DNA from: Candidatus Limnocylindrales bacterium
Lineage (GTDB): Bacteria; Chloroflexota; Limnocylindria; Limnocylindrales; CSP1-4
Reading direction: 5' to 3'
DNA length: 64,000 nt
Assembly: GCA_036504355.1 (NCBI GenBank)
Contig: DASXVG010000079.1
Span: 580 to 64,579, forward strand
Shown here: positions 7,339-44,032 of the stretch, piece after piece
Numbering within the stretch: position 1 is the first letter of the stretch
How the letters are laid out: each line of letters opens with the position of its first letter
Translations under genes and position numbers: made by a program
The notes under the pieces: model-generated
Database searches by the model: none
Seen by the model: the letters and a program-made list of their open reading frames with translations, nothing else
Told to the model about the DNA's origin: nothing

Positions 7339-7352
7339 CCCGCGCGTGGCCG

Positions 7353-9748: not shown

Positions 9749-9771
9749 GGGAGCGGGCCTGCGCCCGTGCG

Positions 9772-10593: not shown

Positions 10594-10643
10594 GCGGCAA
10601 TCGTACGACGCGGCCCAGGGCGCGAAGGACTACGATCGGGCCC

Positions 10644-20529: not shown

Positions 20530-21618
20530 CTAGTCCTCGCCGGCCACCGTGGGCAGGGGCGCTCCCCGTGGGTTCGCGCAGCAGCCGCGGGCGCAGACAG
20601 CCGGCCAGGGCCCGAGCTCGCTCAGCGCCTCGGCCGGGCCGCCGCGGACCCGCTCCGCGACGAGGTCCACGATCCCCTGGACGAACGCGGGGTGGGTCCC
20701 CGGCGTCGCGACTCGCACCATCCGCACGCCGAGGTTCTCGCACGTCTCGCGCGCCTCGTTGTCGAGGTCCCAGATCACCTCGACGTGGTCGCTCACGAAC
20801 CCGACCGGGACCACGACGGCGGCCGTCATCCCGGCATCCGCGGCCGACCGCAGGGCATCGTTGACGTCCGGCTCCAGCCACGGGGTGTGCGGCGATCCGC
20901 TGCGGGACTGGTACACCAGCTGCCACGCGGGCACGTCGACCCCTCTCGCCCGCACGGCGGCGAGCACCGCCTCGATCGCGGCGAGGTGCTGGGCGACGTA
21001 CGCCCCGTTCGCGTCGAACCGTCCGGGCGGGCCGGAGGCGGCGGCCATCGCCGTCGGGATCGAGTGGGTCGTGAACAGGAGCCGCGTCGCCTCCACCGGC
21101 ATGCCTTCGCCCGCCAGCGCCTCGAGCGCAGCCGCGACGCCCTCTGCGAACGGCTCGACGAACCCAGGGTGGTCGAAGTAGTGCCTGACCTTGTCGATCA
21201 CGAGCTCGTCGCCCAGGCCCGTCTCGGCCAACGCCATGCCGAGGTCCTCGCGGTACTGCCGGCACCCGGAGTACGAGGCGTACGCGCTGGTCGCGATCGC
21301 GAGCACCCGCCGGTGCCCGTCCGCGTGGATCCGCCGAAGCTCCGGCACGAGGAACGGGTCCCAGTTGCGGTTCCCCCAGTACACGGGCAGATCGAGGCCG
21401 CGATCGGCCAGGGCCGGCCGCAGCGCATCGAGCAGCGCCCGGTTCTGCGCGTTGATCGGGCTCACGCCGTCCAGGGCCAGGTAGTGGTGCGCGACGGCCT
21501 CGAGCCGCTCCGGCGGGATGCCCCGGCCGTGGGTCACGTTCTCCAGGAAGGGCATCACGTCGTCGGGCCCCTCCGGACCGCCGAACGAGACGAGGAGCAG
21601 TGCGTCGTACGCGCTCAA
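20530..21618 (-). CDS. hemH: Ferrochelatase (coproporphyrin ferrochelatase type), long form with Cys ligands for a probable [2Fe-2S] cluster
   Basis: SAYDALLLVSFGGPEG, FTTHSIPTAM, SDHVEVIWDLDNEA. Four Cys residues: SGCRQY plus the C-terminal VCARGCC. Proposed TTG start at 21618 overlaps the hemQ stop (TTGA). The rest of the 676-aa ORF upstream is an out-of-frame shadow of hemQ. Confidence 0.85.
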   Translation of the reverse strand: MSAYDALLLVSFGGPEGPDDVMPFLENVTHGRGIPPERLEAVAHHYLALDGVSPINAQNRALLDALRPALADRGLDLPVYWGNRNWDPFLVPELRRIHADGHRRVLAIATSAYASYSGCRQYREDLGMALAETGLGDELVIDKVRHYFDHPGFVEPFAEGVAAALEALAGEGMPVEATRLLFTTHSIPTAMAAASGPPGRFDANGAYVAQHLAAIEAVLAAVRARGVDVPAWQLVYQSRSGSPHTPWLEPDVNDALRSAADAGMTAAVVVPVGFVSDHVEVIWDLDNEARETCENLGVRMVRVATPGTHPAFVQGIVDLVAERVRGGPAEALSELGPWPAVCARGCCANPRGAPLPTVAGED

Positions 21619-22358
21619 CGCAGGATCTCGACGACTCCCGCCGCGTCGATCCGCCTGCCGGTGTAGAACGGGATCTCCTCGCGGACGTGTCGGCGGGCGG
21701 CGGTCGACCGCAGGTCGCGCATCAGGTCCACGAGGTCGTGGAGGTCGTCCGCCTCCAGCGCGAGGATCCACTCGTAGTCGTTGAGCGCGAACGCGGCGAC
21801 GGTGTTCGCCTGCACCCGTGGGAACGCTCGACCGGCCACGCCGTGCTCGCGGAGCATCTCGCCGCGCTCCTCCTCGGGCAGCAGGTACCACTCGTAGGAG
21901 CGCACGAACGGGTAGACGCACAGCCAGTCCAGCGCGTCGGTCCCGCGCATGAACGACGGGACGTGGTCCCGGCTGAACTCGGCAGGTCGGTGCGTGCCCA
22001 TGAGGCTGAAGGCGAGCCGGGTCGTCACGCCGGCCGCGGTCCGCCGGAACCCGCGGAGCGCGGCCTGGAGCGACTCCGCGCTCGGTCCGTGGAGCCACAG
22101 CATCACGTCCGCGTCTGCGCGCATCCCCGAGACGTCGTACATGCCCCGCACGACGACGTCCTGCTCGGCCAGGTCTGCGGTCCACGCGTCCAGGGCGCCC
22201 GAGGGGTGCCCGTAGGCGGCCATCGCCTGCGTGCTCGCATCGCGGGCGTAGACCGCCCAGACCGTGTACCGGACGACGGCGTTGAGGTCCGGCGTCGACG
22301 CAACGTCGGGGGCTGGTTCGGACGCGGATCCAGGTTCGGTCACGGCGGTCCTCGACAC
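21615..22358 (-). CDS. hemQ: Coproheme decarboxylase HemQ/ChdC (chlorite-dismutase family)
   Basis: VRYTVWAVYARD..., VVVRGMYDVSGMRADADVMLWLHG, YPFVRSYEWYLLPEEERGEMLREHG and FALNDYEWILALEADDLHDLVDLMRDLR are typical of actinobacterial HemQ. Confidence 0.85.
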   Translation of the reverse strand: MSRTAVTEPGSASEPAPDVASTPDLNAVVRYTVWAVYARDASTQAMAAYGHPSGALDAWTADLAEQDVVVRGMYDVSGMRADADVMLWLHGPSAESLQAALRGFRRTAAGVTTRLAFSLMGTHRPAEFSRDHVPSFMRGTDALDWLCVYPFVRSYEWYLLPEEERGEMLREHGVAGRAFPRVQANTVAAFALNDYEWILALEADDLHDLVDLMRDLRSTAARRHVREEIPFYTGRRIDAAGVVEILR

Positions 22359-22459
22359 GGTCAGTGCAGATCTGGGGTGATGCCGTCACGGTAGCGCGAG
22401 CGGCGCCCAGATTCGCGCAGGTTCCACGCGGCGCACGTCGGGGCGGGGCTGGGATCCGC

Positions 22460-24439
22460 TCAGGCGATCCCGAACAACCGCGCGAGGAACGCCCCCACGC
22501 CGATGGCGAGCGCGAGCGACCCGGCGCTGATCCCGACCGCCGCCCGAGTGCCGAGCTCACCGCGCAGCGCGGCCAGGGTGGCCACGCACGGGATCGACAA
22601 CGACGTCACGACGGCGTACACGAACAGCTGCGGCGGGCTGAGCAGCTCGCCGAGCCCCGCCTGGTAGCCGAGCTCGACGGCCGCGAACGCGATCAGCAGC
22701 TGGAGGGCGAGCTCCTTGCGCAGGAAGGCGAACGCGATCGCGACGCCCGCGATCGCGGGCAGCCCGAGGAGCCACTCGACCGACGGTCCGATCGCGCCGG
22801 CGATGCCCTGCCAGAGGCCCGCCTCGTAGATCAGCCCGAGCACGAATGACCCCGCCAGCATGATCGGCGTCGCCGTCACCACGAACGCCCGGAAGCGCCA
22901 CCACGCCTTCGTGGCGACGAACCGCGGGACGGGGGCCCGCAGCGGCGCGAGCTCGAGCACGAGCGACGGCTGGCGCCCCGGGATCATCGCGTTGGCGCCG
23001 AGCCCCGCTCCGATCGTCGCGACGGCGACGACCCCGAACGCGGCGAGCGCGGCACCGAGGCCCACGAACGGCGCGAGGGCGGCGATGACGACGGCCGAGC
23101 GAGCCGAGCACGGCGTGAGCGTCACGAGGAACGAGGCGAGGACCCGCTCGCGCCGGGTGCGCAGGACGCGCGTCCCGTAGATGGCCGGGACGTTGCAGCC
23201 CGCCGCCGCGAGCAGCGGGATCGCGGCGCGGCCGGGCAGCCCGAGCGTGCCGAACACCCGGTCCATGAGCACGGCGGCGCTGGTGAGGTACCCGGAGTCC
23301 TCGAGGACGGCGAGCAGCAGGTAGAACGTGAGGACGTACGGGACGCCGACGGAGAGCATCCCCAGCATCCCGCCGTCGAGCGCCCACAGGGTCGCGCCGG
23401 CCAGCACGGGGACCGGGATGACCGCGGGCAGGGCCGCGGCGAGGAATGGCGAGACGGTCGCGGCCCAGGCCTGACCGAGCGCCGCGGCGAGCCAGCCGCC
23501 CACGAGGATCACGGCGAAGAACGCGGCGAAGCTGACGCCGAGGAACAGCGGGATCCCCGGCCACGGCGAGGTGCTCCAGCGGCCGATGCGGTCCGCGAGC
23601 GGCTCGGCGACGTCCCGCCGCAGCTCGACCTGCGTCGCCCACGTGGCGGCAGTCTCCCAGCGGATCGGCTCCAGGTCGCGGCCAAGCCGGATCGAGGCCC
23701 CGCCGCGCGGCGAGATCCGGCCCGCGAACACCCCGGCCTGGAGCGGCTCGAGGACGGCGGCCGCACCGAGCGAGCGCGGCTCGAGGGCCAGGGACGCGGC
23801 GGCGTCGGCGAGGCGGCCCTGGAGCTGGTACGGGTACATCGGGGCGGGGACGGTGCCACGCGGCGACCGGTCGCCCGCCGCGACCGCACGGCGCTGGGTG
23901 GCGAGCCGCACGGCCTCGCGCAGCGTGACGTCGACGCCCTCGCCCGTCCGGCCGCACGTCGCGTGCGCCGGGACGTTGAGCACCTGGCCCAGGCGTCCCG
24001 TATCGACCGTGATGCCGCGCTTGGCCGCTTCGTCGGTGAGGTTGACCGCCAGGACGACCGGCAGCCCGAGGTCCCGACACGCGATCGCGAGCGGCAGGTG
24101 GCGCGCCAGGTTCCCGGCGTCCGCCACGACGAGGATGGCGTCGGGCGCGGCCCCGAGCAGCAGCTCCCAGAACGGCGCGTCGCCCGCGGGCTGGTCGTCG
24201 AGCGAGCGGGTGCCGGGCAGGTCCACGAGCCACGCGTCGGTACCGTCGACGGTGACCGGAAGGCGCTCGAGCGAGACGGTGGTCCCCGGCGCGTTCGCGG
24301 TCTCGACGAAGCGCCTGCTCGCGCGGGCCACGAACGTGGACTTGCCGACGTTGGGCCGGCCGACGAGGGCGATGACGGGCCGCTCGGCGGAAGTTCCCGC
24401 GGCGGCAACGCCCGCGGGATGGCACCCGGCGGCCGCCAT
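22460..24439 (-). CDS. feoB: Ferrous iron transporter FeoB (G-domain plus polytopic permease)
   Basis: G1 motif VIALVGRPNVGKST, followed by DLPG and more than 8 hydrophobic segments. ATG 24439 overlaps the feoA stop (TGATG). Confidence 0.9.
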   Translation of the reverse strand: MAAAGCHPAGVAAAGTSAERPVIALVGRPNVGKSTFVARASRRFVETANAPGTTVSLERLPVTVDGTDAWLVDLPGTRSLDDQPAGDAPFWELLLGAAPDAILVVADAGNLARHLPLAIACRDLGLPVVLAVNLTDEAAKRGITVDTGRLGQVLNVPAHATCGRTGEGVDVTLREAVRLATQRRAVAAGDRSPRGTVPAPMYPYQLQGRLADAAASLALEPRSLGAAAVLEPLQAGVFAGRISPRGGASIRLGRDLEPIRWETAATWATQVELRRDVAEPLADRIGRWSTSPWPGIPLFLGVSFAAFFAVILVGGWLAAALGQAWAATVSPFLAAALPAVIPVPVLAGATLWALDGGMLGMLSVGVPYVLTFYLLLAVLEDSGYLTSAAVLMDRVFGTLGLPGRAAIPLLAAAGCNVPAIYGTRVLRTRRERVLASFLVTLTPCSARSAVVIAALAPFVGLGAALAAFGVVAVATIGAGLGANAMIPGRQPSLVLELAPLRAPVPRFVATKAWWRFRAFVVTATPIMLAGSFVLGLIYEAGLWQGIAGAIGPSVEWLLGLPAIAGVAIAFAFLRKELALQLLIAFAAVELGYQAGLGELLSPPQLFVYAVVTSLSIPCVATLAALRGELGTRAAVGISAGSLALAIGVGAFLARLFGIA

Positions 24440-24750
24440 CAGTCGGTCTCTGCCGCCGGGAACGGCGTGCCGATGGGATCGGTCCACGGTTCCGTGGCGA
24501 CGCGACGGGCGATGCTCGCGGACAGCGCCAGCCGCGCACGTCCCAGCTCCACGACGACGGGACCACCGAGCGGCGTGCGCGCGGTCACGACGACGACGGC
24601 GCCGGGCATGAGGCCCTCGCGCTCCAGCTCGTCGCGCGCCACGTCGTCGATCGCGACGACGCGGCGGCGCCAGCCGATCGGGGCGCGGGCGAGGGACGAG
24701 GGCTCATCGGAAGTCGCGGGTCGGCGGGGGGCGAGGAGGGACGGCGTCAT
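24439..24750 (-). CDS. feoA: FeoA-family small protein
   Basis: VVAIDDVARDELEREGLMPGAVVVVTARTPLGGPVVVELGRARLALSASIARRVAT resembles the FeoA SH3-like fold. Start at ATG 24750; the N-terminal limit is uncertain. Confidence 0.7.
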   Translation of the reverse strand: MTPSLLAPRRPATSDEPSSLARAPIGWRRRVVAIDDVARDELEREGLMPGAVVVVTARTPLGGPVVVELGRARLALSASIARRVATEPWTDPIGTPFPAAETD

Positions 24751-25043
24751 GCCTGCAGTAGGCGCAAGCGGGGCGGCGCCGTGGAAGGGAGAAACCGCCC
24801 GACGTTCGCGGGACCTGGGGACCGGCCGTCCCGAGGAGGCAGGCCGGGTGGCGGGTCCGGCGGCCGTCGCCGAGCGTGAATTGCCCAGATTCGGGCCGCC
24901 GGACATGGCCGTGGCCAGGGGTAGGGCCCGGTCCATTTGGGGACGAACCCGGGCCGGAATGCCCTGTCGGCAGGCCCCGCACCTTCCACAGGATGGTGCT
25001 ACCTTCCGCGAGGATTGGTAGATTTGGGAGGTTTTCCCCGGCA

Positions 25044-25742
25044 ATGAGCATGCGTCCCGCACCCAAGGATCCCGGCTGGGTGACGCTCACCGAGGCCTGT
25101 CGCCTGCTCGGCGTCTCCCCGTCGACGATCCGCCGCTGGGGCGACACCGGCATGGTCCGGACGTTCGTCACGCCCGGGGGCCATCGCCGCTTCTCGCGCG
25201 CGGGCCTCGACGCCCTGCTGCCGGAGCGCCCCACCGCACGCCCCTCGCTCATCGACCTCGGCGAGACGGCGGGCCGGATGGCACGGGGCTACCGACGCGC
25301 CGCCGAGACGGTGCCCGGACACATGCCCTGGATCGACGACCTGGACGAGGGCCAGCGCGAACGCTTCCGCGGCTACGGTCGGGGGATCGTGGTCGCGCTC
25401 GTGGCCGCGCTCGACAGCGACGACCCGGTGCGGCGCCGGGAGCTCCTCCGCGACGCCGACGACGCCTGCACGGAATACGGACGGATCGCCGGTCGCGAGG
25501 GTCTCGCCTCCGCCACGACCGCGGACCTGTTTCTCCGCTTCCGGTTGCCGTTCCTCACCGAGCTCGGCTCGCTCGCCCGCCGGCGCGAGTTCGATGCCGC
25601 CGCAACGGCGTCGCTCATGGCCGATGCCAACGCGGCCCTCGACGGTCTGCTCCTCGCCACGCTCCGTGGCTGGGAGGCGGCGGCGATGGGCCTGGGCCGA
25701 CAGTCCCGGCGACCCGCCGCAGCGGCCGGGAGCCGGTCGTGA
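25044..25742 (+). CDS. HTH (MerR/excisionase-type, HTH_17-like) DNA-binding protein with an uncharacterised helical C-terminal domain
   Basis: gggagg lies 12 nt upstream of ATG 25044. WVTLTEACRLLGVSPSTIRRWGDTGMVRTFVTPGGHRRFSRAGLDALL. Its stop overlaps the hemA start (GTGA). Confidence 0.7.
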   Translation: MSMRPAPKDPGWVTLTEACRLLGVSPSTIRRWGDTGMVRTFVTPGGHRRFSRAGLDALLPERPTARPSLIDLGETAGRMARGYRRAAETVPGHMPWIDDLDEGQRERFRGYGRGIVVALVAALDSDDPVRRRELLRDADDACTEYGRIAGREGLASATTADLFLRFRLPFLTELGSLARRREFDAAATASLMADANAALDGLLLATLRGWEAAAMGLGRQSRRPAAAAGSRS

Positions 25743-26983
25743 TCGACGCTCCGCACGTAGCCGCACCCGCGGACCCGGCCATCGGCGTCGGCCTCGTCGC
25801 GCTCGTCGCGCACGCACGCTTCGTCCCGAGCGAGGAGCGCGAGGCCTTCGGGGATGCCGCCGCAGCGCTCGCCTCGGACCCGCGGGCGATCCTCCTGCGC
25901 ACCTGCCATCGCATCGAGCTGTACGCGATCGATGCGGCCGCGCACGGGCTGCCGCCGCTCACGCTCCCGACCCTCCCCCACGGCGCCCGGCGCCTCGAGG
26001 GCATCGCGGCCGCACGCCACGTGTTCACGGTCGCTGCGGGCCTGGACAGCGTCGTCGTGGGCGAGGACCAGATCCTCCACCAGCTCCGGGAGTGCCTCTC
26101 GGACCGCCATGTCCCGGCCGCCGACAGGTGCCCCGTCGACATCGGTTCGCACAGCGCCGGCGCCATCGGCCTGCACCCGGCGATCGAGCGGCTGTTCCAG
26201 ATTGCGCTCCACCTCGGGCGCGAGACGCGCTCCTGGCGTGAGGGGCCGCCGCGCTCGCTGGCGGACGTGGCGCTCGACCGGATCGTCCCCGTGACCGGTC
26301 CACTGCTGGGCCGGCGCGTGCTCGTGGTCGGCGCGGGTCGAATGGCCCGCCTCGCGGCGCTCGCGACCGCTCGCCAGGGCGCTCGCGTCCTCGTTGCGAA
26401 CCGCAGCTCCGATCGCGCGGCCGCGCTCGCCTTCGACGCCAACGGCGAGCCCGCCGCGTTCGGCGCCGAGGTCGCCCTCCCGGGCGCGGACGCGTACATC
26501 CTCGCGATCTCCGCCCGATGGCCGCTCTCGGAGGAGGCGCGGGCCACGCTCCTCGCCGGATCCCAGCCCGTCATCGACCTGTCCTCGCCGCCGGCGCTCG
26601 ACGCCGAGACCCGCGAGGCCCTGGGCACCCGGTACACGAGCGTGGACGACCTTGCCCGGAGCCCCCAGGACGAGCTGCGCAAGCGCCTCCGCGTCCGCTT
26701 CGAGCGGGTCCTCGACGACGCCGAGCAGCGCTACGCGCAGTGGGTCCGGGCCCGCGGGTCCGTCCCCGCCATCCAGGCCCTCACCGACCAGGCCGAGGCG
26801 CGTCGCGCCGAGGAGCTGGATCGCCTGTTCCGTCGCGCCGACCTGGCCGATGCCGACCGCGAGCTCATCGTCCAGATGAGCCATCGCCTCGTCGCCGGCC
26901 TGCTCCACGCCCCGCTCGTCAAGCTGCGTGACGACGACACGGGCGAGCTGGAGCGTGCCGCCCGGGACCTGTTCGCCCTGTAG
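25739..26983 (+). CDS. hemA: Glutamyl-tRNA reductase
   Basis: Catalytic Cys segment LLRTCHRIELYAID, then VVVGEDQILHQL, then the NADPH-binding motif VLVVGAGRMARLAA, and a C-terminal dimerisation helix region. Confidence 0.85.
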   Translation: MIDAPHVAAPADPAIGVGLVALVAHARFVPSEEREAFGDAAAALASDPRAILLRTCHRIELYAIDAAAHGLPPLTLPTLPHGARRLEGIAAARHVFTVAAGLDSVVVGEDQILHQLRECLSDRHVPAADRCPVDIGSHSAGAIGLHPAIERLFQIALHLGRETRSWREGPPRSLADVALDRIVPVTGPLLGRRVLVVGAGRMARLAALATARQGARVLVANRSSDRAAALAFDANGEPAAFGAEVALPGADAYILAISARWPLSEEARATLLAGSQPVIDLSSPPALDAETREALGTRYTSVDDLARSPQDELRKRLRVRFERVLDDAEQRYAQWVRARGSVPAIQALTDQAEARRAEELDRLFRRADLADADRELIVQMSHRLVAGLLHAPLVKLRDDDTGELERAARDLFAL

Positions 26984-26990: not shown

Positions 26991-28760
26991 ATGCGTCCCA
27001 TGACCCGAACCCTCCGCATCGGCACTCGCGGCAGCCAGCTCGCGCTCGTCCAGGCGCACTGGGTCGCCGATCGCCTTGCCGAGCACGGCGTCACCACCGA
27101 GATCACGATCATCCGGACCGAAGGCGATGACCGCCCGATCGATACCGCGTGGGGCGAGGGCGCATTCGTGGGCCGGATCGTCGGCGCGCTCCTCGAGGGC
27201 ACCGTTGACCTCGCGGTCCACAGCGCGAAGGACGTCCCCACCGACGAGCACCCGCAGCTCGTCATCGCGGCCTACCCGCCGCGCGAGGACCCCCGTGACG
27301 CACTCGTCTGCCGGGTCCGTGGCACCACCCTCGACGCGCTCCCCCCGTGCGCGCGTGTCGGCACCGACAGCCCGCGCCGCATCGCGTTCCTGCGGGCCGT
27401 CCGTCCCGACCTCGAGCTCCACCCGCTCCACGGGAACGTGGACACGCGCCTCGCCAAGCTCGACCGCGGCGACTCCGACGCGCTGGTGCTCGCGGTCGCG
27501 GGCCTGACCCGCCTCGGGCGCGCAGATCGCATCGACGACATCCTGCCGACGTCCATGCTCGCCTCCGCGCCCGGGCAGGGGAGCCTCGCGCTCCAGGTCC
27601 GAAGCGACGACGACGAGGCCATCGGCGCGGTCGGCCTCCTCGACGACCCGGCGACGCGCGCCGCCGTCCAGGCCGAGCGGGCGCTGCTCAACGGGACCGG
27701 GGGCGGCTGCCGCTCGCCGATCGGGGCGCTGGGCCGGCTTCGCCCGGACGGCCGGCTCGAGGTCGTCGCGGCGGCGGAGCGGACCTGGTCCCCGCTCGCC
27801 CACGCGCCGCTCGCCGACGCGACCGCGCCCATCGCCTGGGTGCGCGGCGACGCTGACCCGTCCGCGAACCTCGCCCTTGCCGCCCGCCTCGCTGACCGGA
27901 TCGTCACGCTTCGCCAGCGGCCACGGGTGCTCACGTGCCGGACCGACGCGCAGGCGACGCACCTCCTGCGGGCGCTCGACGCCCACGACATCGAAGCCGT
28001 CAACGTGCCGGCCATCGAGATCGTCGCGGCCCCCGCGGGCGCCGACCTCGATGCCGCTCTGCGCGAGCTCGCGCCGGGCGAGCGGATCGTCGTGACCAGC
28101 GGCAATGCCGCGCGCGCAACCCTCGCCGCGCTTGGCCGCATCGCGGTCCCCGCCGACGTCCCGTCCTGGGCGGCGGTGGGGGACGGCTCCGCCGCCGTCC
28201 TGGCGGCTGCGGGCATCGACGACCCGTTCATCCCGTTCGTTGCCGACGCCGCGACGCTTGCCCGCGACCTCCCGCTGATCCCGGGCGAGCGCGTCCTGCT
28301 GCCGCGCAGCGACATCGCCGACGACGCCCTGCCGGCCGCCCTCCGCGAGCGCGGCGCCGCGGTCACCGAGGTCGTCGCCTACCGCACGGTCGAGGCGCCG
28401 GACGCCTCCCGGCCGCGTCTCGCCGCCGCCTTCGACGACGGGCCCCTGGACGCCGTCGTCCTGACCAGCGGCTCCACGGCCCGAGGCATCCTCGCGCTGG
28501 CGGCCGACGGTGAGGCCCGGGCGCGACTGCTCGCGGCGCCAGTGATCGCGATCGGTGAGCCGTCCGCGGCCGCCGCGCGCGAGGCCGGCTTCGCGCGGAT
28601 CGTCATCGCCCCGGGACCCGAGCCGTCCGCGGTCGCCGCGTTCACGGCGATCGCCCTCGGGACCCGCGAGGCGCCACACCCGCTCGCGCATCGCCACCTG
28701 CCGCCGACGCTCGAGGCAGCGGCGTCTCGCGAGCCCGCCACCACCGGAGGAGCCAGATGA
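26991..28760 (+). CDS. hemCD: Bifunctional hydroxymethylbilane synthase (HemC) / uroporphyrinogen-III synthase (HemD) fusion
   Basis: N-terminal half: LRIGTRGSQLALVQA, AVHSAKDVPT, GGGCRSPIGA (cofactor Cys). C-terminal ~250 aa: RVLTCRTDAQATHLLRALDAHDIEAVNVPAIEI...VVTSGNAARA...VVLTSGSTARG (HemD fold). A single uninterrupted frame. Confidence 0.85.
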   Translation: MRPMTRTLRIGTRGSQLALVQAHWVADRLAEHGVTTEITIIRTEGDDRPIDTAWGEGAFVGRIVGALLEGTVDLAVHSAKDVPTDEHPQLVIAAYPPREDPRDALVCRVRGTTLDALPPCARVGTDSPRRIAFLRAVRPDLELHPLHGNVDTRLAKLDRGDSDALVLAVAGLTRLGRADRIDDILPTSMLASAPGQGSLALQVRSDDDEAIGAVGLLDDPATRAAVQAERALLNGTGGGCRSPIGALGRLRPDGRLEVVAAAERTWSPLAHAPLADATAPIAWVRGDADPSANLALAARLADRIVTLRQRPRVLTCRTDAQATHLLRALDAHDIEAVNVPAIEIVAAPAGADLDAALRELAPGERIVVTSGNAARATLAALGRIAVPADVPSWAAVGDGSAAVLAAAGIDDPFIPFVADAATLARDLPLIPGERVLLPRSDIADDALPAALRERGAAVTEVVAYRTVEAPDASRPRLAAAFDDGPLDAVVLTSGSTARGILALAADGEARARLLAAPVIAIGEPSAAAAREAGFARIVIAPGPEPSAVAAFTAIALGTREAPHPLAHRHLPPTLEAAASREPATTGGAR

Positions 28761-29812
28761 GCCTCACGGTCGACCGCCTCGGTGCCCCCGGCGACGACGC
28801 GCCCGGCCGCGCCGACCAGATGGGCGCCGTCACCCCGGAACCCGCCCACCGCCTCAGGCGAACCCGCCGGACCGAGACCCTGCGCGCGTTCGTGCGCGAG
28901 ACCCGGATCCACCCTCGCCAGCTCGTCGCGCCGCTGTTCGTGTACCCGGGGCTGGGCGGCCGCCAGCCGGTCGGCTCGATGCCCGGCGTCGAGCGGGTCA
29001 CCCCCGACGAGGCGCTCAAGGACGCCCGCGCGCTCGAGGCGCTCGGCATCGGCGGCGTGATCCTGTTCGGCCTGCCGGCCGAGAAGGACGCGATCGGGAC
29101 CGGCGGCTGGGTCGCCGACGGGATCGTCCAGGAGACGCTGCGCCGGTTCCGCGACGCGGACCTGGACCTCGCCCTCATCGCCGACCTGTGCCTGTGCGAG
29201 TACACCGACCACGGCCATTGCGGCCCGCTCCTCGCCGACGGCAGCGTGGACAACGACGCCACGATCGAGCTGTACGCCCGCACGGCGCAGAGCCAGGCCG
29301 AGGCCGGGGCCGACATCGTGGCACCGTCCGGGATGATGGACGGCCAGGTGCGCGCGATCCGCGCGGGCCTCGACGCCGCGGGGCACCACGAGACCGCGAT
29401 CTTGGCCTACGCGGCGAAGACCGCGTCCGCGTTCTACGGCCCGTTCCGGGACGCCGCGGGCTCGACGCCCAGCTTCGGCGACCGGCGCGGCTACCAGATG
29501 GATCCGGCGAACGGCCGCGAGTCGCTGCGCGAGATGCAGGTCGACGTGGACGAGGGCGCGGACATGCTGCTCGTCAAGCCGGCGCTGCCGTCGCTCGACA
29601 TCCTGGCCTCAGCGCGCGCCCGGTTCGACCTGCCGATCGGCGCCTACCAGGTGAGCGGGGAGTACGCCTCGATCGAGGCCGCGGCGGCCAACGGCTGGCT
29701 GGACCGCCGGCGCGCCCTCACCGAGTCAACCACCGCGATCCTGCGCGCCGGTGCCGGGTTCGTGATCACGTATGCGGCCGCGGACCTCGCGACCTGGTCA
29801 CGGGAGGCCTGA
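28757..29812 (+). CDS. hemB: Porphobilinogen synthase (delta-aminolevulinate dehydratase), Zn-type
   Basis: Cys-rich metal site DLCLCEYTDHGHCG. Active-site Lys regions MLLVKPAL and SGEYA. ATGA overlap with hemCD. Confidence 0.9.
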   Translation: MSLTVDRLGAPGDDAPGRADQMGAVTPEPAHRLRRTRRTETLRAFVRETRIHPRQLVAPLFVYPGLGGRQPVGSMPGVERVTPDEALKDARALEALGIGGVILFGLPAEKDAIGTGGWVADGIVQETLRRFRDADLDLALIADLCLCEYTDHGHCGPLLADGSVDNDATIELYARTAQSQAEAGADIVAPSGMMDGQVRAIRAGLDAAGHHETAILAYAAKTASAFYGPFRDAAGSTPSFGDRRGYQMDPANGRESLREMQVDVDEGADMLLVKPALPSLDILASARARFDLPIGAYQVSGEYASIEAAAANGWLDRRRALTESTTAILRAGAGFVITYAAADLATWSREA

Positions 29813-29816
29813 ACCG

Positions 29817-31106
29817 ATGCCCGTCACCGCCCCCGGCCGCCAGGCCGACCTCCGCGCGCGCGCCGAGGACCTGTTCCCGGGCGGCGTGAACAGCCCGGTC
29901 CGGGCGTTCCGCTCCGTCGGGCGCGCACCGCTCGTCCTCGACGCGGGGTCCGGCCCGCGGGTCCGCGACGCCGACGGCAGGTGGTACCTCGACTACATCT
30001 CGTCCTGGGGCCCGGCGATCCTGGGTCACGGCCACCCCGCGGTCATCGAGGCGGTCCGCGAGGCGGTGCTCGACGGGTTCGCGCTCGGAGCCACCTCGCC
30101 TCGCGAGGTCGAGCTCGGGGAGCGGATCCGGGCCGCGATGCCGTCGATGGAGCGACTGCGCTTCACGTCCTCGGGCACCGAGGCGGTGATGAGCGCGATC
30201 CGGCTCGCCCGCGGCGCGACGGGACGGGAGCTCATCGTCAAGTTCGCGGGCGGCTACCACGGCCACGGCGACAGCCTCCTCGTCGAGGCGGGCTCGGGGC
30301 TCGCGACGCTCGCGATGCCCGGGTCCGCGGGCGTCACCGCAGCTGCAGCACGGGACACGATCGTCGTGCCGTACAACGACCCGCTGGCACTCGCCCGCGC
30401 GTTCGAGGCGCACCCGGACCGGATCGCGGCGGTGATCGTGGAGCCGGTTGCCGCCAACGTCGGCGTCGTGCCGCCGGCGCCGGGCTTCCTGGAGACGCTC
30501 CGCGAGCTCACGGCGATCAACGGCGCGCTGCTCATCTTCGACGAGGTCATCACCGGGTTCCGGCTCGCGCGGGGCGGCGCCCAGGAGCGCTACGGCGTCC
30601 GGCCCGACCTCACCACGCTGGGCAAGATCATCGGCGGCGGGATGCCCGTCGGGGCGTACGGTGGCCGCGCGGACCTCATGCGCCAGGTCGCACCCGAGGG
30701 CCCCGTCTACCAGGCGGGGACGCTGTCGGGCCACCCGCTCATTATGGCCGCGGGCGTCGCGACGCTCGACCTGCTCACGCCCGGTCTCTACGCCACGCTC
30801 GAGGCCACCGGCGCCGCGCTCGAGGCCGGGCTCCGCGAGGCGGCTGCGCACACGGGTCGCACGGACGTCTGGATCAACCGGGTCGGCTCCCTGCTCACGG
30901 TGTTCTTCCTCGCCGAGGCGCCGCGGGACGGGGCCGAGGCGCTCGCCGCCGACCGGGACGCCTATGCGCGCTTCTTCGGTTCGATGCTGGACCAGGGCGT
31001 CCTCCTGGCGCCGTCGCAGTTCGAGGCGTGGTTCGTCGGCGCCGCCCACGGCGAGGCCGAGGTCCGCGAGACGATCGCCGCCGCACGAACGGCGTTTGCG
31101 GCATGA
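29817..31106 (+). CDS. hemL: Glutamate-1-semialdehyde 2,1-aminomutase
   Basis: LFPGGVNSPVRAF, LIFDEVITGFR and TLGKIIGGGMPVGAYGG (PLP Lys). gggagg precedes ATG 29817. Confidence 0.9.
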   Translation: MPVTAPGRQADLRARAEDLFPGGVNSPVRAFRSVGRAPLVLDAGSGPRVRDADGRWYLDYISSWGPAILGHGHPAVIEAVREAVLDGFALGATSPREVELGERIRAAMPSMERLRFTSSGTEAVMSAIRLARGATGRELIVKFAGGYHGHGDSLLVEAGSGLATLAMPGSAGVTAAAARDTIVVPYNDPLALARAFEAHPDRIAAVIVEPVAANVGVVPPAPGFLETLRELTAINGALLIFDEVITGFRLARGGAQERYGVRPDLTTLGKIIGGGMPVGAYGGRADLMRQVAPEGPVYQAGTLSGHPLIMAAGVATLDLLTPGLYATLEATGAALEAGLREAAAHTGRTDVWINRVGSLLTVFFLAEAPRDGAEALAADRDAYARFFGSMLDQGVLLAPSQFEAWFVGAAHGEAEVRETIAAARTAFAA

Positions 31107-32176
31107 GCGCTCCGATGCCCGCCCCGGCCCCGGAGCGCGTCCCGGCCCCACGGCTCGACGCACGCTTCCTGCGCGCGGCGCGCGGGCTGCCCGTCGACGC
31201 GACCCCCGTGTGGTTCATGCGCCAGGCCGGCCGTGCGCTCCCCGAGTACCGCAAGGTGCGCGAGACGGCGACGCTGCTCGAGATCACCCGGGACGCCGAC
31301 CTGTGCGCGGAGGTCACGCTCCAGCCCGTCCGCCGGCTCGGCGTCGACGCGGCGATCATGTTCGCCGACATCACGACCCCGCTGGCGGGCCTCGGCATCG
31401 CGTTCGACATCAAGGAGGGCGTCGGCCCCGTCATCGAGCAGCCGATCCGCACGCTCGCCGACCTCGCGCGGTTCCGCCCGTTCGAGCCGGAGGTCGCCGT
31501 CGCCCCCCTGCTGGACGCCATCCGGATCGTCCGCCGCGAGTCACCGGTGCCGCTCATCGGGTTCGCGGGCGCGCCGTTCACGCTCGCCTGCTACCTCGTG
31601 GAGGGCGGCCCGTCGCGCGACTTCGTCAACACCAAGAAGCTCATGCACGCGCAGCCCGAGACGTGGGCGGGCCTGCTCGACATCCTCGTCGAGGCGACGC
31701 TCCGGTACCTCCGGGCGCAGGTCGAGGCCGGCGCGGAGGCCGTCCAGCTGTTCGACTCGTGGGTCGGCGGCCTGAGCCCGCTCGACTACGAGAAGCGCCT
31801 CATGCCGTGGATGACCCGCCTGCTCGACGGGATGGCCGAGCTCGGCGTGCCACGCACGCACTTCGGCGTGGGCACGGCCGGGCTGCTCGGGCTCCAGGCC
31901 GCCGCCGGCGGGGACGTCATCGGGCTCGACTGGCGGATCGCCCTGTCCGAGGGCCGGCGGATCGTCGGCGACCGCGCGGTGCAGGGCAATCTCGATCCCG
32001 TCCTGCTGCTGGGCCCCTGGTCCGGCGTCGAGGAGGGCGCCCGCTGGGTGCTCCAGCAGAACGACCGCCGACCCGGCCACATCTTCAACCTGGGGCACGG
32101 CGTGCTCCCGTCCACCAACCCGGACCACCTCGCGCGCCTCGTCGACCTGGTCCACGACTTCGGAGCCTCACGATGA
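31103..32176 (+). CDS. hemE: Uroporphyrinogen decarboxylase
   Basis: PVWFMRQAGRALPEYR signature, and the C-terminal region GHIFNLGHGV. ATGA overlap with hemL. Confidence 0.9.
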   Translation: MSAPMPAPAPERVPAPRLDARFLRAARGLPVDATPVWFMRQAGRALPEYRKVRETATLLEITRDADLCAEVTLQPVRRLGVDAAIMFADITTPLAGLGIAFDIKEGVGPVIEQPIRTLADLARFRPFEPEVAVAPLLDAIRIVRRESPVPLIGFAGAPFTLACYLVEGGPSRDFVNTKKLMHAQPETWAGLLDILVEATLRYLRAQVEAGAEAVQLFDSWVGGLSPLDYEKRLMPWMTRLLDGMAELGVPRTHFGVGTAGLLGLQAAAGGDVIGLDWRIALSEGRRIVGDRAVQGNLDPVLLLGPWSGVEEGARWVLQQNDRRPGHIFNLGHGVLPSTNPDHLARLVDLVHDFGASR

Positions 32177-33108
32177 CCCGCGACGCGGTCCTGCTCATGG
32201 CCTATGGCTCGCCCGACCGGCTCGACCAGGTCGAGGCGTACTACACCGACATCCGCCGTGGCTCGCCGCCCCCGCCGCACCTCCTCGCGGAGCTCACGGC
32301 ACGCTACGCGGCCATCGGCGGCGGCTCGCCGCTGTCGCTTGTCGTCGAGGCACAGCGTGCGGCCCTCCATGCGGAGCTCGCGTCACGCGGGACGCCCATG
32401 CCGGTGTACGCGGGGATGCGCCACATCGCGCCGCGGATCGGCGACATCGTCAAGGGCATGGCCGCGGACGGCGTGGAGCGCATGGTCGCGATCGCGATGG
32501 CGCCGCAGGCGTCGTCGAACGCCGCCGGCTACCGGCGGGCGGTCGATGGCGCGCTCGCCGACATCGAGGCGGCGGGCGGCACGCCGCCGCGTGTCGAGTA
32601 CGTCGCCTCGTGGCACGACGAGCCGCGGTTCATCGAGGCACTCGCGACCACGACCCGCGAGGCCCTCGCGCGCTTCGACGACCCGTCCGCGCCGCTCGTC
32701 ATGTTCACCGCCCACAGCCTTCCCGCTCGTGTCCTGGCGGACGGGGACCCGTACCCGGACGAGCTTGCCGCGACGGCATTCCTCGTGGCCGAGGCGCTGG
32801 GCCTGGAGCGGTACACGTTCAGCTTCCAGAGCGCCGGCCGGACCGGCGAGGAGTGGCTGGGCCCGGACATCCTCGCGGAGCTGCGCCGCCTCGGGGCGGA
32901 CGGCGTCCGCGAGCTCGTCGTCCGGCCGGTCGGCTTCACGGCGGACCACCTCGAGGTGCTCTACGACATCGACATCGAGGCCCAGGCCGTCGCCCGCGAG
33001 GCGGGGATCCACCTGGAACGCGCCCGTTCGATGAACACCGATCCGATCTTCATCGCCGCCCTCGCGGACGTCGCGACGTCGGCGCTCACCCCCGTCCCCG
33101 TCGCCTGA
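32173..33108 (+). CDS. hemH: Ferrochelatase, short Cys-free form (second paralogue; coproporphyrin ferrochelatase-like)
   Basis: AVLLMAYGSPD, FTAHSLPARV (catalytic His) and TADHLEVLYDIDIEA. No cysteine anywhere in the 311-aa product. ATGA overlap with hemE. Confidence 0.85.
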   Translation: MTRDAVLLMAYGSPDRLDQVEAYYTDIRRGSPPPPHLLAELTARYAAIGGGSPLSLVVEAQRAALHAELASRGTPMPVYAGMRHIAPRIGDIVKGMAADGVERMVAIAMAPQASSNAAGYRRAVDGALADIEAAGGTPPRVEYVASWHDEPRFIEALATTTREALARFDDPSAPLVMFTAHSLPARVLADGDPYPDELAATAFLVAEALGLERYTFSFQSAGRTGEEWLGPDILAELRRLGADGVRELVVRPVGFTADHLEVLYDIDIEAQAVAREAGIHLERARSMNTDPIFIAALADVATSALTPVPVA

Positions 33109-33130: not shown

Positions 33131-34336
33131 ATGTCCGCATCGATCGATCCCGTCCCCGCGGCCCGCCAGACCGGCCATCCCGGCGGCCATCCCGGTGGTC
33201 ACCCGGGTGGGATCACCGGCGTCGGCGCCGTCCGCGCCGAGGGCTATGTATACGACCGCGCGCCGATGCTCGTGTACTGGGAGACGACGCTCGCCTGCGG
33301 GCTGGCCTGCCGCCACTGCCGCGCCACCGCGCAGGCCGAGCGCAACCCGCTCGAGCTCACGACCGACGAGGGCTACGCGCTCCTCGACGAGATCACCAAG
33401 TTCGGCCGCCCCTACCCGCATGTCGTGTTCACCGGCGGCGACCCGCTCAACCGGCCCGACCTCCACGAGCTCGTCCGGGCGGCCACCGCCCGCGGCATCG
33501 GCGCGTCCCTTGCCCCGGCGGCGACGCCGCTCCTCACCCGGGAGGTCATGGAGAGCCTTCGTGACGCCGGCATCCAGAACATCAGCCTGAGCCTCGACGG
33601 CTCGAACGCGGAGCGCCACGACGGCTTCCGGATGGTGCCGGGCACCTTCGACAAGACGCTCCAGGCCGCGAGGTGGGCGCGGGCCGCCGGGCTGCCGATC
33701 CAGGTCAACACCCTCGTCACCGACGAGACGCTGGAGGACCTGCCGGCCGTCTACGAGCTCCTGAAGGGCATGGACATCATGCGCTGGAGCCTGTTCATGC
33801 TGATCACGACCGGCCGGGGCGCCGGCCTCCGGGAGGTCACGCCCGGCCAGAGCGAGAAGCTCCACGGATGGCTGTTCGAGCTGGCGAAGACCGCGCCGTT
33901 CCAGGTCAAGACGACCGAGGCGACGCACTACCGGCGTCTCGCCATCCGCTCCTGGCTCGCCGAGGGCAAGACCGAGGAGGAGATCCTCGCCACGTCCGTG
34001 GGCCGCGGGTTCGGGATCCGGGACGGCAACGGCATCGTGTTCATCAACCACGACGGGACGATCAACCCGTCGGGCTTCCTGCCGATCCCGCTGGGCAACG
34101 TCAGGACCGGGTCGATCGTGGACATCTATCGCGACCACCCGGTCATGCGCGATCTCCGGGCGCCCGAGGCGTTCAAGGGCCGCTGCGGGGCCTGCGAGTA
34201 CGGCCGCGTCTGCGGCGGGTCCCGGGCGCGCGCGTACGCGTGGACGGGCGACCCGCTCGAGGCCGACCCGCTCTGCCCGTACGTCCCGTCCGGCGACGTG
34301 CCCGCGTACGGCATGCCCGTCGCGGTCACCGCGTAG
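33131..34336 (+). CDS. Radical SAM/SPASM-domain protein, AhbD/NirJ-like (candidate oxygen-independent coproheme decarboxylase)
   Basis: CGLACRHC is a CxxxCxxC triad, followed by VVFTGGDPL. C-terminal SPASM-type Cys motif: GRCGACEYGRVCGGSRARAY...DPLCPY. The N-terminus carries an HPGGHPGGHPGG repeat. Confidence 0.7.
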   Translation: MSASIDPVPAARQTGHPGGHPGGHPGGITGVGAVRAEGYVYDRAPMLVYWETTLACGLACRHCRATAQAERNPLELTTDEGYALLDEITKFGRPYPHVVFTGGDPLNRPDLHELVRAATARGIGASLAPAATPLLTREVMESLRDAGIQNISLSLDGSNAERHDGFRMVPGTFDKTLQAARWARAAGLPIQVNTLVTDETLEDLPAVYELLKGMDIMRWSLFMLITTGRGAGLREVTPGQSEKLHGWLFELAKTAPFQVKTTEATHYRRLAIRSWLAEGKTEEEILATSVGRGFGIRDGNGIVFINHDGTINPSGFLPIPLGNVRTGSIVDIYRDHPVMRDLRAPEAFKGRCGACEYGRVCGGSRARAYAWTGDPLEADPLCPYVPSGDVPAYGMPVAVTA

Positions 34337-34350: not shown

Positions 34351-35784
34351 ATGGGCGTCCTCGTCGTCGGTGGCGGCATCAGCGGTCTGGCGGCCGCGCG
34401 TGCGCTCGCGGGTGAGGGCGTCCCGGTCACCCTCGTCGATGCTGCGCTGCGGCTCGGCGGCAAGGTCGACACGGAGCGTGTCGACGGGCTCGTCATCGAG
34501 CGCGGCCCCGACTCGTTCCTCGCCACGCGTCCCGCGGCGGTGACGCTCGCGAGCGAGCTTGGCCTCGGCGACGAGCTCGTGGGCACGAGGGACCCGCGCG
34601 CCGTGTTCATCCGCCACCGCGGTCGGCTGGTACCGATGCCCGAGGGCCTCGGCCTGGTGCTCCCGACGCGCGCCATGCCGTTCGCGCGGACACGCCTGTT
34701 CTCGCTGCCCGAGAAGCTCCGGATGGCGAAGGACGTCGTGTGGCCGCGGATCCTCCCCCCCGACGACGTCGCCGTTGGCACGTTCCTGCGCGAGCGGCTG
34801 GGCTCGCCGCTGGTGGACCGGCTCGCCGGGCCCCTCGTGGGTGGGGTCTACGGGACGCCGATCGACGAGCTGAGCCTGGACGCGGTCGTGCCCACGCTGC
34901 GCACGGCCGAGCGCGAGCACCGGAGCCTGCTGTTCGCCGGGCTTGCCGACGGCCGGAAGATGCGAGCTGCGATGGCGGCGCGACCCGCCGGGCCGAAGCG
35001 CCTCGGCGCCTTCGCGTCGCTGGCGCACGGGATGGACACGCTGGTCGGCGCGCTCGAGGCCTCGCTCCAGGAGCGGGGCGTCGACGTCCGGACCGGCCTC
35101 GGGGTGCGCACGCTGCTGCGAGCCGGGACCGGCGTCGCGGCGCGCTTCAGTGACGGAAGCCTCGACCGCTTCGACGCCGTCGTGATCGCCGCGCCGGCGC
35201 CCGTCGCCGCCACGCTCCTCGCCGACGAGGTCCCGGGCGCATCGACCGCCCTCCGCGAGATCCCGCACGGCACGTCGATCCTTGTGACACTGGCATACCC
35301 GCGCGAGCGCGTCGCGCACCCCCTCGTGGGGCACGGCTACCTCGTCCCGGCAGCGGAGGGTGGCGCCATCTCCGCCTGCACCTGGACCTCCGAGAAGTGG
35401 GCCGGCCGGGCGCCGGACCACACCGTCCTGCTCCGGATGTTCGTCCGCGACGAGGGCGCCTGGACGTCGCTCCCGGACGATCAGCTGGTGGCTGCCGCAC
35501 GGGCCGACGCGGAACGGACGCTCGGGATCAGCGGTGAGCCGGTGCTCGTCCGTGTCGCGCGGTGGGCGGGCTCGATGCCGCGCTACACCGTGGGGCACCT
35601 CTCGCGGATCGCCGCCGTCGACGAGGCGATGACCGCGTGGCCCGCGGTGGTCCTCGCCGGCTCGTCGTACCGGGGGGTTGGGCTACCGGACTGCGTGACG
35701 GGCGGCCTCGCGGCGGCCAGCGCGGTCACCGCACGGCTCGGCGGGCTGGCCGAGGAGACCCCGGAGACGGCCCTCGTCGGCTGA
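34351..35784 (+). CDS. hemY: Coproporphyrinogen III oxidase / protoporphyrinogen oxidase HemY (CgoX), FAD-dependent
   Basis: Dinucleotide fold VLVVGGGISGLAAA, RGPDSF, and the C-terminal motif RWAGSMPRYTVGH...AGSSYRGVGLPDC. Confidence 0.85.
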   Translation: MGVLVVGGGISGLAAARALAGEGVPVTLVDAALRLGGKVDTERVDGLVIERGPDSFLATRPAAVTLASELGLGDELVGTRDPRAVFIRHRGRLVPMPEGLGLVLPTRAMPFARTRLFSLPEKLRMAKDVVWPRILPPDDVAVGTFLRERLGSPLVDRLAGPLVGGVYGTPIDELSLDAVVPTLRTAEREHRSLLFAGLADGRKMRAAMAARPAGPKRLGAFASLAHGMDTLVGALEASLQERGVDVRTGLGVRTLLRAGTGVAARFSDGSLDRFDAVVIAAPAPVAATLLADEVPGASTALREIPHGTSILVTLAYPRERVAHPLVGHGYLVPAAEGGAISACTWTSEKWAGRAPDHTVLLRMFVRDEGAWTSLPDDQLVAAARADAERTLGISGEPVLVRVARWAGSMPRYTVGHLSRIAAVDEAMTAWPAVVLAGSSYRGVGLPDCVTGGLAAASAVTARLGGLAEETPETALVG

Positions 35785-35794: not shown

Positions 35795-36715
35795 TCAGCC
35801 AAGGGCGGCGCGGAGCTCCGGGAGGCGGTCCATCGTCTCCAGGTCGAACGGCGTCCGGAAGATGAGCACCGGGTGATCGAAGCCCACGGCGCGGTAGCGG
35901 TCGAGCTGATCGGCGACGTCCGCGACTGTCCCGTAGGCGGTGAGCCGGTCCTCGCCGGCCTGCGGGAGGTGGCCCTCGACCCAGCCTGTCCACGCGCGCT
36001 CTGCCTCCTCGCGCGTCCCACGGATGACGACGTTCGCGTTGTACGTGCGCTCGATCTCGCGCTGGTCCCGCCCGACGGCGTCGCAGGCGGCACGCAGGAT
36101 CGTGTCCGAGGCAGCGAGCTCGTCCGGGGTGCCGTACGCATTCCACAGGGCGCCCGAGCGCGCGATGAGCGGGAGCGTCTTCGTCGGGCCCGAGCCGCCG
36201 ATGAGGATCGGCAGGTGCGGCTGGATCGGGCGGGGTGCACAGATCGCGTCGTCGAACCGGTAGAACCGGCCCGCGTGGGTGACGCGCTCGCCGTCGAGCA
36301 GCCGGCGGATGAGGGGCACCGCCTCCGCCAGGCGGTCGAGCCGCTCCCCGAAGCCGGTGCCGAAGTCGAGCCCGAATGCCTCGTGCTCGCGGGCGAACCA
36401 GCCCGCGCCGATGCCGAGGATCGCGCGCCCGTCGCTCAGGTGGTCGAGCGTCGCCGCGAGCTTCGCCGTGAGTCCCGGGTTACGGAACGTGTTCGCGGCG
36501 ACCATGAGGCCGAGCCGCGGCCGGTTCGTCACCGCGGCGACCGCGGCGAGCGTGGACCAGCCCTCGAGCTTGGGGTCCCGCCACGCGCCCTCGTCGGAGA
36601 GCAGGTGGTCGTCGATCCACAGGTCGTCGAACCCGCACGTCTCCGCGTGGAGGGCCGCCTCCCGGAGCTCGGGCCACCCCGTCCGCTGCACCCAGTACGC
36701 CGCCCCGAACCGCAT
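35795..36715 (-). CDS. LLM-class (luciferase-like) F420/flavin-dependent oxidoreductase
   Basis: MRFGAAYW..., LWIDDHLL, GRAILGIGAGWFAREHEAFG, PILIGGSGPTKTL. The rest of the 906-aa ORF upstream is a low-complexity shadow. Confidence 0.8.
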   Translation of the reverse strand: MRFGAAYWVQRTGWPELREAALHAETCGFDDLWIDDHLLSDEGAWRDPKLEGWSTLAAVAAVTNRPRLGLMVAANTFRNPGLTAKLAATLDHLSDGRAILGIGAGWFAREHEAFGLDFGTGFGERLDRLAEAVPLIRRLLDGERVTHAGRFYRFDDAICAPRPIQPHLPILIGGSGPTKTLPLIARSGALWNAYGTPDELAASDTILRAACDAVGRDQREIERTYNANVVIRGTREEAERAWTGWVEGHLPQAGEDRLTAYGTVADVADQLDRYRAVGFDHPVLIFRTPFDLETMDRLPELRAALG

Positions 36716-36733
36716 GCGCCCTATCGTAGGGGC

Positions 36734-41112: not shown

Positions 41113-41141
41113 ACCGGGCCGCGGCAACCGCGGCCCGGTTT
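41113..41141. terminator. Bidirectional terminator-type hairpin between convergent genes
   Basis: accgggccgcgg-caa-ccgcggcccggt forms a 12-bp perfect stem, followed by ttt. It abuts the stop of the minus-strand radical SAM gene. Confidence 0.6.
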
Positions 41142-42697: not shown

Positions 42698-42710
42698 GGT
42701 GTCTCCGCCG

Positions 42711-44019: not shown

Positions 44020-44032
44020 GGGTGGCGCCCGC

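Follow-up and report, generated by a model that had tools for sequence, protein, structure and literature searches.

The closest described relatives of the protein analysed here are the AhbDs, radical S-adenosylmethionine (SAM) enzymes that all share a CX2CX5CX20-38C motif (Fix et al. 2023). The AhbDs of methanogens and sulfate reducers possess eight SPASM cysteines and two auxiliary clusters (AuxI and AuxII); in those of non-methanogenic archaea CX2CX5CX20-38C alone is left, and C223, C274 and C324 of the Methanosarcina barkeri enzyme are replaced by a Glu and two Ser. Two of these replacements are visible in the published alignment as KTTEAPHYRR and YPSGFLP in haloarchaeal AhbDs, versus KATCAPHY and FPCGYLP in M. 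barkeri (Fix et al. 2023). In Haloferax volcanii, where ahbD lies near nirK and norB, deletion of the gene leads to a growth defect only under anaerobic conditions, which is rescued by haem, and deletion of pitA (the ChdC gene) impairs aerobic growth. Here we describe a radical SAM gene in a 64,000-nt stretch of DNA (the window) from a Candidatus Limnocylindrales bacterium (contig DASXVG010000079.1), which lies in a haem biosynthesis operon and is predicted to encode an AhbD-type enzyme lacking AuxI. From its family membership, its pattern of cysteines and Glu/Ser/Ser, its position in the operon and its conserved synteny, all of them observed in this work, we infer the substrate of the enzyme, its activity and its use under anoxia. 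With a probability that we put at about three in four, and arguing by analogy, it would convert coproheme to haem b independently of oxygen, in parallel to HemQ. An AhbD-like step of this kind had been proposed in a preliminary description of the same DNA, and it appears to be the best-supported reading in view of the family, the cysteines, the synteny and the H. volcanii precedent.

The open reading frame (ORF) starts with ATG, encodes 401 aa, ends with TAG and has a GGAG 8 nt 5' of the start codon. The GC content at its third codon positions (GC3) is 0.94, as expected for a real gene in a window with 73% GC, and the E value of its match to the NCBIfam model TIGR04053 (2e-136) is far from that of a chance match. 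The CGLACRHC triad pointed out in the preliminary description is found in the translation as C56-x3-C60-x2-C63, a CX3CX2C motif predicted to provide the ligands of the radical-SAM [4Fe-4S] cluster. The C-terminal SPASM-like motif reported alongside it is present as well, as C352-x2-C355-x5-C361-x20-C382 (GRCGACEYGRVCGGSRARAY...DPLCPY), and is predicted to ligate a single auxiliary cluster; as a SPASM motif it is incomplete and offers the AuxII site only. Both motifs are invariant across the three alignments that we used (A1, A2 and A3). Since the translated ORF has no cysteine between C63 and C352, the protein can hold one auxiliary cluster only, in the AuxII position. In place of the AuxI ligands C223, C274 and C324 of M. 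barkeri AhbD, it has E263 (KTTEATHYRR), S314 (NPSGFLP) and S364 (CGGSRARA), respectively, which are conserved among its relatives, E263 and S314 at 90% or more in A3. The CX3CX2C motif, the x2/x5/x20 cysteine spacing and the three aligned residues are together the features by which AhbDs lacking AuxI are recognized in the literature.

Profile searches point in the same direction. The best match of the protein is TIGR04053, with 454.9 bits against a curated cut-off of 395 and coverage of positions 3-366 of the 366 in the model, and its closest database proteins are named TIGR04053 family. The second best match is TIGR04545 ("heme b synthase"), which corresponds to AhbD sensu stricto, with 302.8 bits and thus below the curated cut-off of 500. 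The Pfam Radical_SAM model (PF04055) is matched with 81.5 bits against a gathering threshold of 29.5, which places the protein firmly in the radical SAM superfamily, and the Pfam SPASM model yields 19.8 bits, under its cut-off of 21.5, the protein having four C-terminal cysteines versus the seven or eight of a two-cluster SPASM domain. Several homologues carry the label "AdoMet-dependent heme synthase" at the Joint Genome Institute (JGI).

How AhbDs that have been described or studied score against the same two models is informative. Their sequences were reconstructed by machine reading of the alignment that supplements Fix et al. 2023; about 100 N-terminal residues are missing and reading errors occur, so that the identities and scores obtained with them are approximate. 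Among these N-terminally shortened sequences, the haloarchaeal Hlac_1215 scores 342 bits with TIGR04053 and 221 bits with TIGR04545, and the crenarchaeal PAE0596 scores 368 and 175 bits. The protein encoded in the window, when shortened alike, scores 342 and 231 bits. The order is the reverse for DVU_0855 of Desulfovibrio vulgaris (279 bits with TIGR04053, 528 with TIGR04545) and Mbar_A1458 of M. barkeri (268 and 483 bits). Approximate identities to our protein amount to 46-47% for the haloarchaeal AhbDs and 36-39% for the two AhbDs that have been studied biochemically (39% for M. barkeri). A clean control is offered by the full-length sequence of a haloarchaeal AhbD orthologue, Natrinema WP_006186691.1, which NCBI names "TIGR04053 family": it is 64-66% identical to Hlac_1215 and NP_1546A, is 44.5% identical to our protein over 346 aa, and confirms the result obtained with the rebuilt sequences. 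Judged from its sequence, the protein is thus a member of the AuxI-less AhbD type, because of the shared best model, the Natrinema control and the identities. In the wider family, the full cysteine set occurs in 14 of 111 full-length representatives, most of the others being of the AuxI-less Glu/Ser/Ser type. The 14 cluster together in a neighbour-joining tree built with BLOSUM distances, which backs this full-cysteine AhbD group but no finer division.

The genomic context connects the gene to coproheme. As can be seen in Table 1, where the neighbours were identified by profile-library searches, the operon has the order hemA-hemCD-hemB-hemL-hemE-hemH-radical SAM gene-hemY and comprises a complete gene set from glutamyl-tRNA to coproheme. 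The genomic association with coproheme-making genes that characterizes AhbDs is found here in the position of the gene between hemH and hemY, separated from them by gaps of 22 and 14 nt. These distances agree with the preliminary description, as do the location of the gene inside a hemA-to-hemY operon and the presence of a separate hemQ, 11 kb away.

The arrangement is conserved in relatives. We scanned one genome per species, kept the best 80 of more than 600 matching stretches and located hem genes by tblastn with the window's own proteins. An identical copy of the protein is found in the same gene order on a JGI metagenome contig (L001), on which the ferrochelatase gene of the operon, hemH1, is also called as a gene. 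The closest other proteins, with 93% identity and below, come from metagenome-assembled genomes of "Candidatus Limnocylindrales" and other Chloroflexota, and an 82% identical relative, encoded on a contig of 2.2 Mb (L002), displays the same layout of feoAB, a MerR-like helix-turn-helix (HTH) gene and hemA through hemH, the radical SAM gene and hemY. The upstream order is the same in most Limnocylindria loci, and the 60-odd syntenic loci are those of Chloroflexota/Limnocylindria. An actinobacterial origin, to which the 73% GC and the HemQ_actino match could point, was considered and rejected in view of the nearest proteins and these loci. Such a survey had been suggested in the preliminary description, and it finds the synteny to be present: of the 76 loci open to this test, 70 have hemY next downstream of the radical SAM gene, and the upstream neighbour is hemH (58) or hemE (8) in 66 of 70. 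Haem-gene synteny holds down to 58% identity and in two phyla (Chloroflexota and Propionibacteriales), although the order differs, being that of the window in Chloroflexota and hemA-hemE-radical SAM gene-hemY-hemQ-hemH-hemC in Propionibacteriales. Since the radical SAM gene and hemY stay adjacent while the other hem genes differ in order between the phyla, this pair is the conserved core of the arrangement. In one Propionibacteriaceae locus (UBA7704; L082, positions 6939-11472) the order is hemE-radical SAM gene-hemY-hemH, and no hemQ was found anywhere in the 17 kb of the locus; in its sister loci, hemQ separates hemY from hemH. As far as this 17-kb locus goes, the lineage may rely on the radical SAM enzyme alone.

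More distant members, retrieved by a profile search, are mostly from Acidobacteriota and 44-49% identical. In four of four Acidobacteriota loci (L083, L084, L086 and one more) the homologue lies outside a hem operon, beside a norB gene for a quinol-dependent nitric oxide reductase (qNOR), a ScdA/hemerythrin gene and a Crp/Fnr-type regulator. At a fifth locus (L085), whose taxon is not known, its neighbour is a molybdopterin-oxidoreductase cluster that includes Nitrate_red_del and EB_dh genes. These contexts parallel that of H. volcanii ahbD beside nirK and norB, and they fit a role in anaerobic conditions or under nitric oxide stress. Taken together, the hem-operon and the norB/Fnr-type contexts suggest a supply of haem when oxygen is scarce.

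By analogy with the M. barkeri and D. vulgaris enzymes, the cluster held by C56, C60 and C63 would cleave SAM reductively, and the resulting 5'-deoxyadenosyl radical would remove a hydrogen atom from one of the propionate side chains of coproheme. CO2 would then be lost and the leftover electron would exit via the auxiliary cluster at C352, C355, C361 and C382. Two such cycles, on the propionates of rings A and B, would give the two vinyl groups of haem b. The organism would thereby have a terminal step needing neither O2 nor H2O2, beside the peroxide-dependent HemQ/ChdC.

Several points weigh against oxygen-independent coproheme decarboxylation. The protein fails the curated AhbD equivalog model, TIGR04545, and TIGR04053 has been left without a functional name by NCBI. 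Limnocylindria are regarded mainly as aerobes, which makes the physiological need for an anaerobic step uncertain. Perturbation of AuxI in M. barkeri AhbD stalls the reaction at a monovinyl intermediate (Fix et al. 2023), and an AuxI-less enzyme would have to complete both decarboxylations without that cluster. Homology at the level observed here is not decisive, because glycerol monoalkyl glycerol tetraether (GMGT) lipid synthases have been identified among proteins that share 36% identity with M. barkeri AhbD. Our literature search found no biochemical assay of a TIGR04053-type enzyme from a coproporphyrin-pathway bacterium. Finally, it is hemY, and neither hemQ nor hemH, that is most conserved as a neighbour, which would also fit a role in the oxidase step.

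Such a role, in which the enzyme would serve the HemY step as an oxygen-independent coproporphyrinogen III oxidase or dehydrogenase, as a HemN-like decarboxylase of the porphyrinogen or as a redox partner by which HemY could turn over without O2, is nevertheless unlikely. It would account for the adjacency to hemY in two phyla with differently arranged other hem genes, and an anaerobic coproporphyrin pathway needs an oxidase step too, the known CgoN being almost confined to Bacillaceae. However, the closest characterized relatives all act on side chains of iron tetrapyrroles, and the homologues in Acidobacteriota and haloarchaea have no hemY nearby. Homology lends no support either: Pfam finds Radical_SAM and a weak SPASM only, with no HemN_C domain, and the 25 best NCBIfam matches include no model of the HemN family. 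Moreover, according to a 2025 review CgoX of Staphylococcus aureus works both aerobically and anaerobically (compare the title of PMC6620371), and it is reported to manage the latter alone. The concern of the preliminary description that an oxygen-independent HemY is missing is therefore weaker than thought.

Coproheme remains the favoured substrate when other tetrapyrroles are considered. It is very unlikely that the protein resembles NirJ or AhbC in function, with a tetrapyrrole substrate derived from sirohaem (haem d1 or the sirohaem route), or that it modifies or degrades haem. The models for NirJ2 (194 bits), NirJ, AhbC and NirJ1 do match significantly, with 149-194 bits, but these scores are far below cut-offs of 500-650 bits. 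The scanned ORFs of the window yielded no nir, ahbA/B/C or sirohaem genes, and the operon already runs without a gap from glutamyl-tRNA to coproheme.

A structural model of the protein bears on the last alternative. An AlphaFold2 (AF2) model computed from a 56-sequence alignment has a predicted local distance difference test (pLDDT) score of 78 and a predicted template modelling (pTM) score of 0.79, with residues 1-43 below a pLDDT of 50; it replaced an earlier, unusable model from a 12-sequence alignment (pLDDT 56.7). The nearest folds found by Foldseek are SkfB, PqqE, SuiB, BlsE and anSME, with E values of 7e-17 to 1e-10 and template modelling (TM) scores of up to 0.65. Sequence searches of the PDB likewise retrieve BlsE, PqqE and similar proteins, and no AhbD structure was found there by sequence search. 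A SuiB-like model has likewise been reported for M. barkeri AhbD (Fix et al. 2023), in agreement with the predicted fold. It is hardly credible that the protein is an AhbD homologue acting on a non-tetrapyrrole substrate, as a GMGT lipid synthase (Gms)-like enzyme or a peptide-modifying SPASM maturase: the identity between Gms and M. barkeri AhbD is similar to the 39% of our protein, 7 kb downstream there is a radical SAM gene of Tes/TrsS-like type, and the nearest solved folds are peptide maturases. However, the published criterion for Gms is a folded COG4001 domain of about 100 aa at the N terminus, where our protein has a low-complexity tail of 43 residues that is predicted to be disordered and has no Pfam match; peptide-maturase models reach at most 117 bits versus cut-offs of at least 265; and in two phyla the gene forms part of a hem operon.

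Table 1. Features of the radical SAM gene and of its surroundings in the window (residue numbers refer to the 401-aa protein)
Feature	Position	Strand	Basis or remark
Radical SAM gene, AuxI-less AhbD type (TIGR04053 family)	33131..34336	+	ORF/translation, profile scores
N-terminal GHPGGHPGGHPGG repeat, residues 15-27	33173..33211	+	Inside tail 1-43, predicted disordered
CX3CX2C motif (C56, C60, C63; ACGLACRHC)	33296..33319	+	Predicted radical-SAM [4Fe-4S] ligands
E263 (KTTEATHYRR) and S314 (NPSGFLP)	33917..34072	+	Replace M. barkeri AhbD AuxI ligands C223 and C274
CX2CX5CX20C motif (C352, C355, C361, C382)	34184..34276	+	Predicted ligands of a single auxiliary cluster, AuxII
hemH2 (second ferrochelatase)	about 20533-21615	-	NF000689, 456.8 bits (cut-off 408)
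hemQ/ChdC	21615-22358	-	HemQ_actino, 323 bits (cut-off 235); Pfam Chlor_dismutase
feoB	22460-24487	-	Profile match
feoA	about 24439-24741	-	Pfam FeoA
MerR/BldC-like HTH regulator	24876-25742	+	Profile searches
hemA	25739-26983	+	GlutR domains
hemC-hemD fusion	about 27012-28760	+	Profile searches
hemB	28757-29812	+	Profile searches
hemL	29817-31106	+	Profile searches
hemE	31115-32176	+	URO-D, 405 bits
hemH1 (ferrochelatase)	32173-33108	+	TIGR00109, 221 bits (cut-off 125)
hemY (CgoX-type coproporphyrinogen/protoporphyrinogen oxidase)	34351-35784	+	TIGR00562, 255.8 bits (cut-off 97.85); Pfam Amino_oxidase; ATG start
F420-dependent luciferase-like oxidoreductase	35795-36730	-	Convergent to hemY
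Second radical SAM protein	41141-42802	-	TrsS, 191 bits; Tes, 161 bits
lgt	43174-44091

In the operon itself, hemH1 overlaps hemE by 4 nt, and hemC and hemD form a single ORF of about 580 aa, with an HMBS domain followed by uroporphyrinogen-III synthase, a fusion that is also seen in the 82% identical relative. Divergent from the operon is a minus-strand cluster (20533..24741) of feoA, feoB, hemQ and hemH2. The latter is directly downstream of hemQ, is 31% identical to hemH1 and has a Cys-rich C terminus (ETCENLG...WPAVCARGCCANPRG), which we take to resemble that of the [2Fe-2S] ferrochelatases of actinobacteria. In the window, HemQ and the AhbD-type enzyme thus each have a ferrochelatase of their own encoded next to them. 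In two relatives (L014 and L017), the HemQ-HemH2 pair comes right after hemY.

Beyond hemY, the luciferase-like oxidoreductase is retained at this place in nearly all relatives with more than about 80% identity but not in more distant ones, which probably indicates plain synteny, not a functional link. The second radical SAM protein, of up to 553 aa, has its best matches in TrsS and the tetraether lipid synthase Tes, both far below the cut-offs; it was considered as a HemN/HemW-like candidate and rejected, being Tes/TrsS-like. Its gene is close to lgt, with a small unassigned ORF in between; the product has no relation to tetrapyrroles and could be an enzyme that modifies membrane lipids. Homologues of the AhbD-type protein with 58-63% identity and no adjoining hem gene occur at four loci (L073, L075, L076 and L081). 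Two of these belong to Micropruina, and the other two come from one bin with the label Brevundimonas and one with the label Acidobacteriaceae; the contig assigned to Brevundimonas may have been misbinned.

The N-terminal tail of the protein has its own peculiarity. The repeat listed in Table 1 lies outside the TIGR04053 model, the match to which begins at residue 41, and it is omitted from one NCBI annotation (P0063), which starts the protein at M46. Limnocylindria relatives have between 1 and more than 5 copies of (G)HPGG, and Propionibacteriales homologues a single HPxG (HPxGIGSVKP). We considered the HPGG repeat as a family-wide feature and rejected this, since it is restricted to the clade of our protein, with sporadic similar tails elsewhere. 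His/Pro/Gly-rich N-termini are also seen in some AhbDs of sulfate reducers (Ddes_0287 and DEB50_09370). A more elaborate proposal would see in hemH1, the radical SAM gene and hemY a self-contained oxygen-independent terminal module parallel to an "aerobic" one of feoAB, hemQ and hemH2, with a redox coupling of the flavoenzyme CgoX and the AuxI-less AhbD, mirrored in the near-invariant adjacency of their genes, in which electrons from porphyrinogen oxidation feed SAM cleavage, and with the HPGG repeat handing off haem or iron; this we regard as rather doubtful.

Much of this picture has been anticipated. A 2023 review, citing Dailey et al. 2015, describes ahbD as co-localized with hemY/hemH/hemQ or with ahbA/B/C, and reviews citing the same work propose that AhbD may replace ChdC anaerobically; Layer et al. 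are among the publications that already give the AhbD interpretation. CgoN was discovered in 2024, in a paper in which the anaerobic decarboxylase is still called "yet unknown"; other reviews assume AhbD. Searches of the literature for TIGR04053 or BA_1875 found nothing relevant. Because reviews citing Dailey et al. 2015 already state the hypothesis, neither the arrangement nor the proposed function as an anaerobic substitute for HemQ is new, and our finding is a sound rediscovery. Three points are added to it. The enzymes linked to hem operons are of the AuxI-less type common to haloarchaea and Crenarchaeota, not of the studied type with two auxiliary clusters; hemY is the most conserved partner gene; and the lineage has two ferrochelatases, one beside each candidate decarboxylase. 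While these points leave a specialist's picture unchanged, anaerobic haem synthesis in coproporphyrin-pathway bacteria is only partly settled, and the residual value of the locus is as a clean test case for the AhbD assumption, because all steps are encoded in a single operon, in an organism that has HemQ as well.

How does the enzyme compare with known systems? The solved SPASM/Twitch enzymes that are nearest in fold to its model (SkfB 6EFN, PqqE 6C8V, SuiB 5V1Q, anSME 4K36 and BlsE 7VOB) share 15-22% identity with it and have different substrates. HemQ/ChdC, encoded in the same window, catalyses the overall reaction proposed for the enzyme, from coproheme to haem b, but it has an unrelated chlorite-dismutase fold, depends on peroxide and is no radical SAM enzyme. 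M. barkeri Mbar_A1458 and D. vulgaris DVU_0855, which belong to TIGR04545 and are biochemically characterized coproheme decarboxylases, show full-length homology (303 bits, 36-39% identity) and the same radical-SAM and AuxII motifs. These AhbDs sensu stricto differ in having an eight-Cys SPASM domain and two auxiliary clusters, whereas our protein has AuxII only and stays under the cut-off of their model. Most similar are the AuxI-less archaeal AhbDs of haloarchaea (HVO_2144, Hlac_1215 and NP_1546A) and Crenarchaeota (PAE0596 and APE_1655), which have the same best NCBIfam model, the same motifs and the same Glu/Ser/Ser, and share near-identical KTTEA.HYRR, PSGFLP and CGGSRARA blocks with our protein at 44-47% identity. 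The archaeal enzymes finish the sirohaem-dependent route, with ahbA/B/C present, and their genes are near denitrification genes. In contrast, the gene described here lies in a coproporphyrin-pathway hem operon, with no ahbABC found among the scanned ORFs of the window, and its product differs from the archaeal AhbDs by the N-terminal HPGG repeat tail. As in the window, an AuxI-less AhbD coexists with ChdC in H. volcanii, where it is required only without oxygen.

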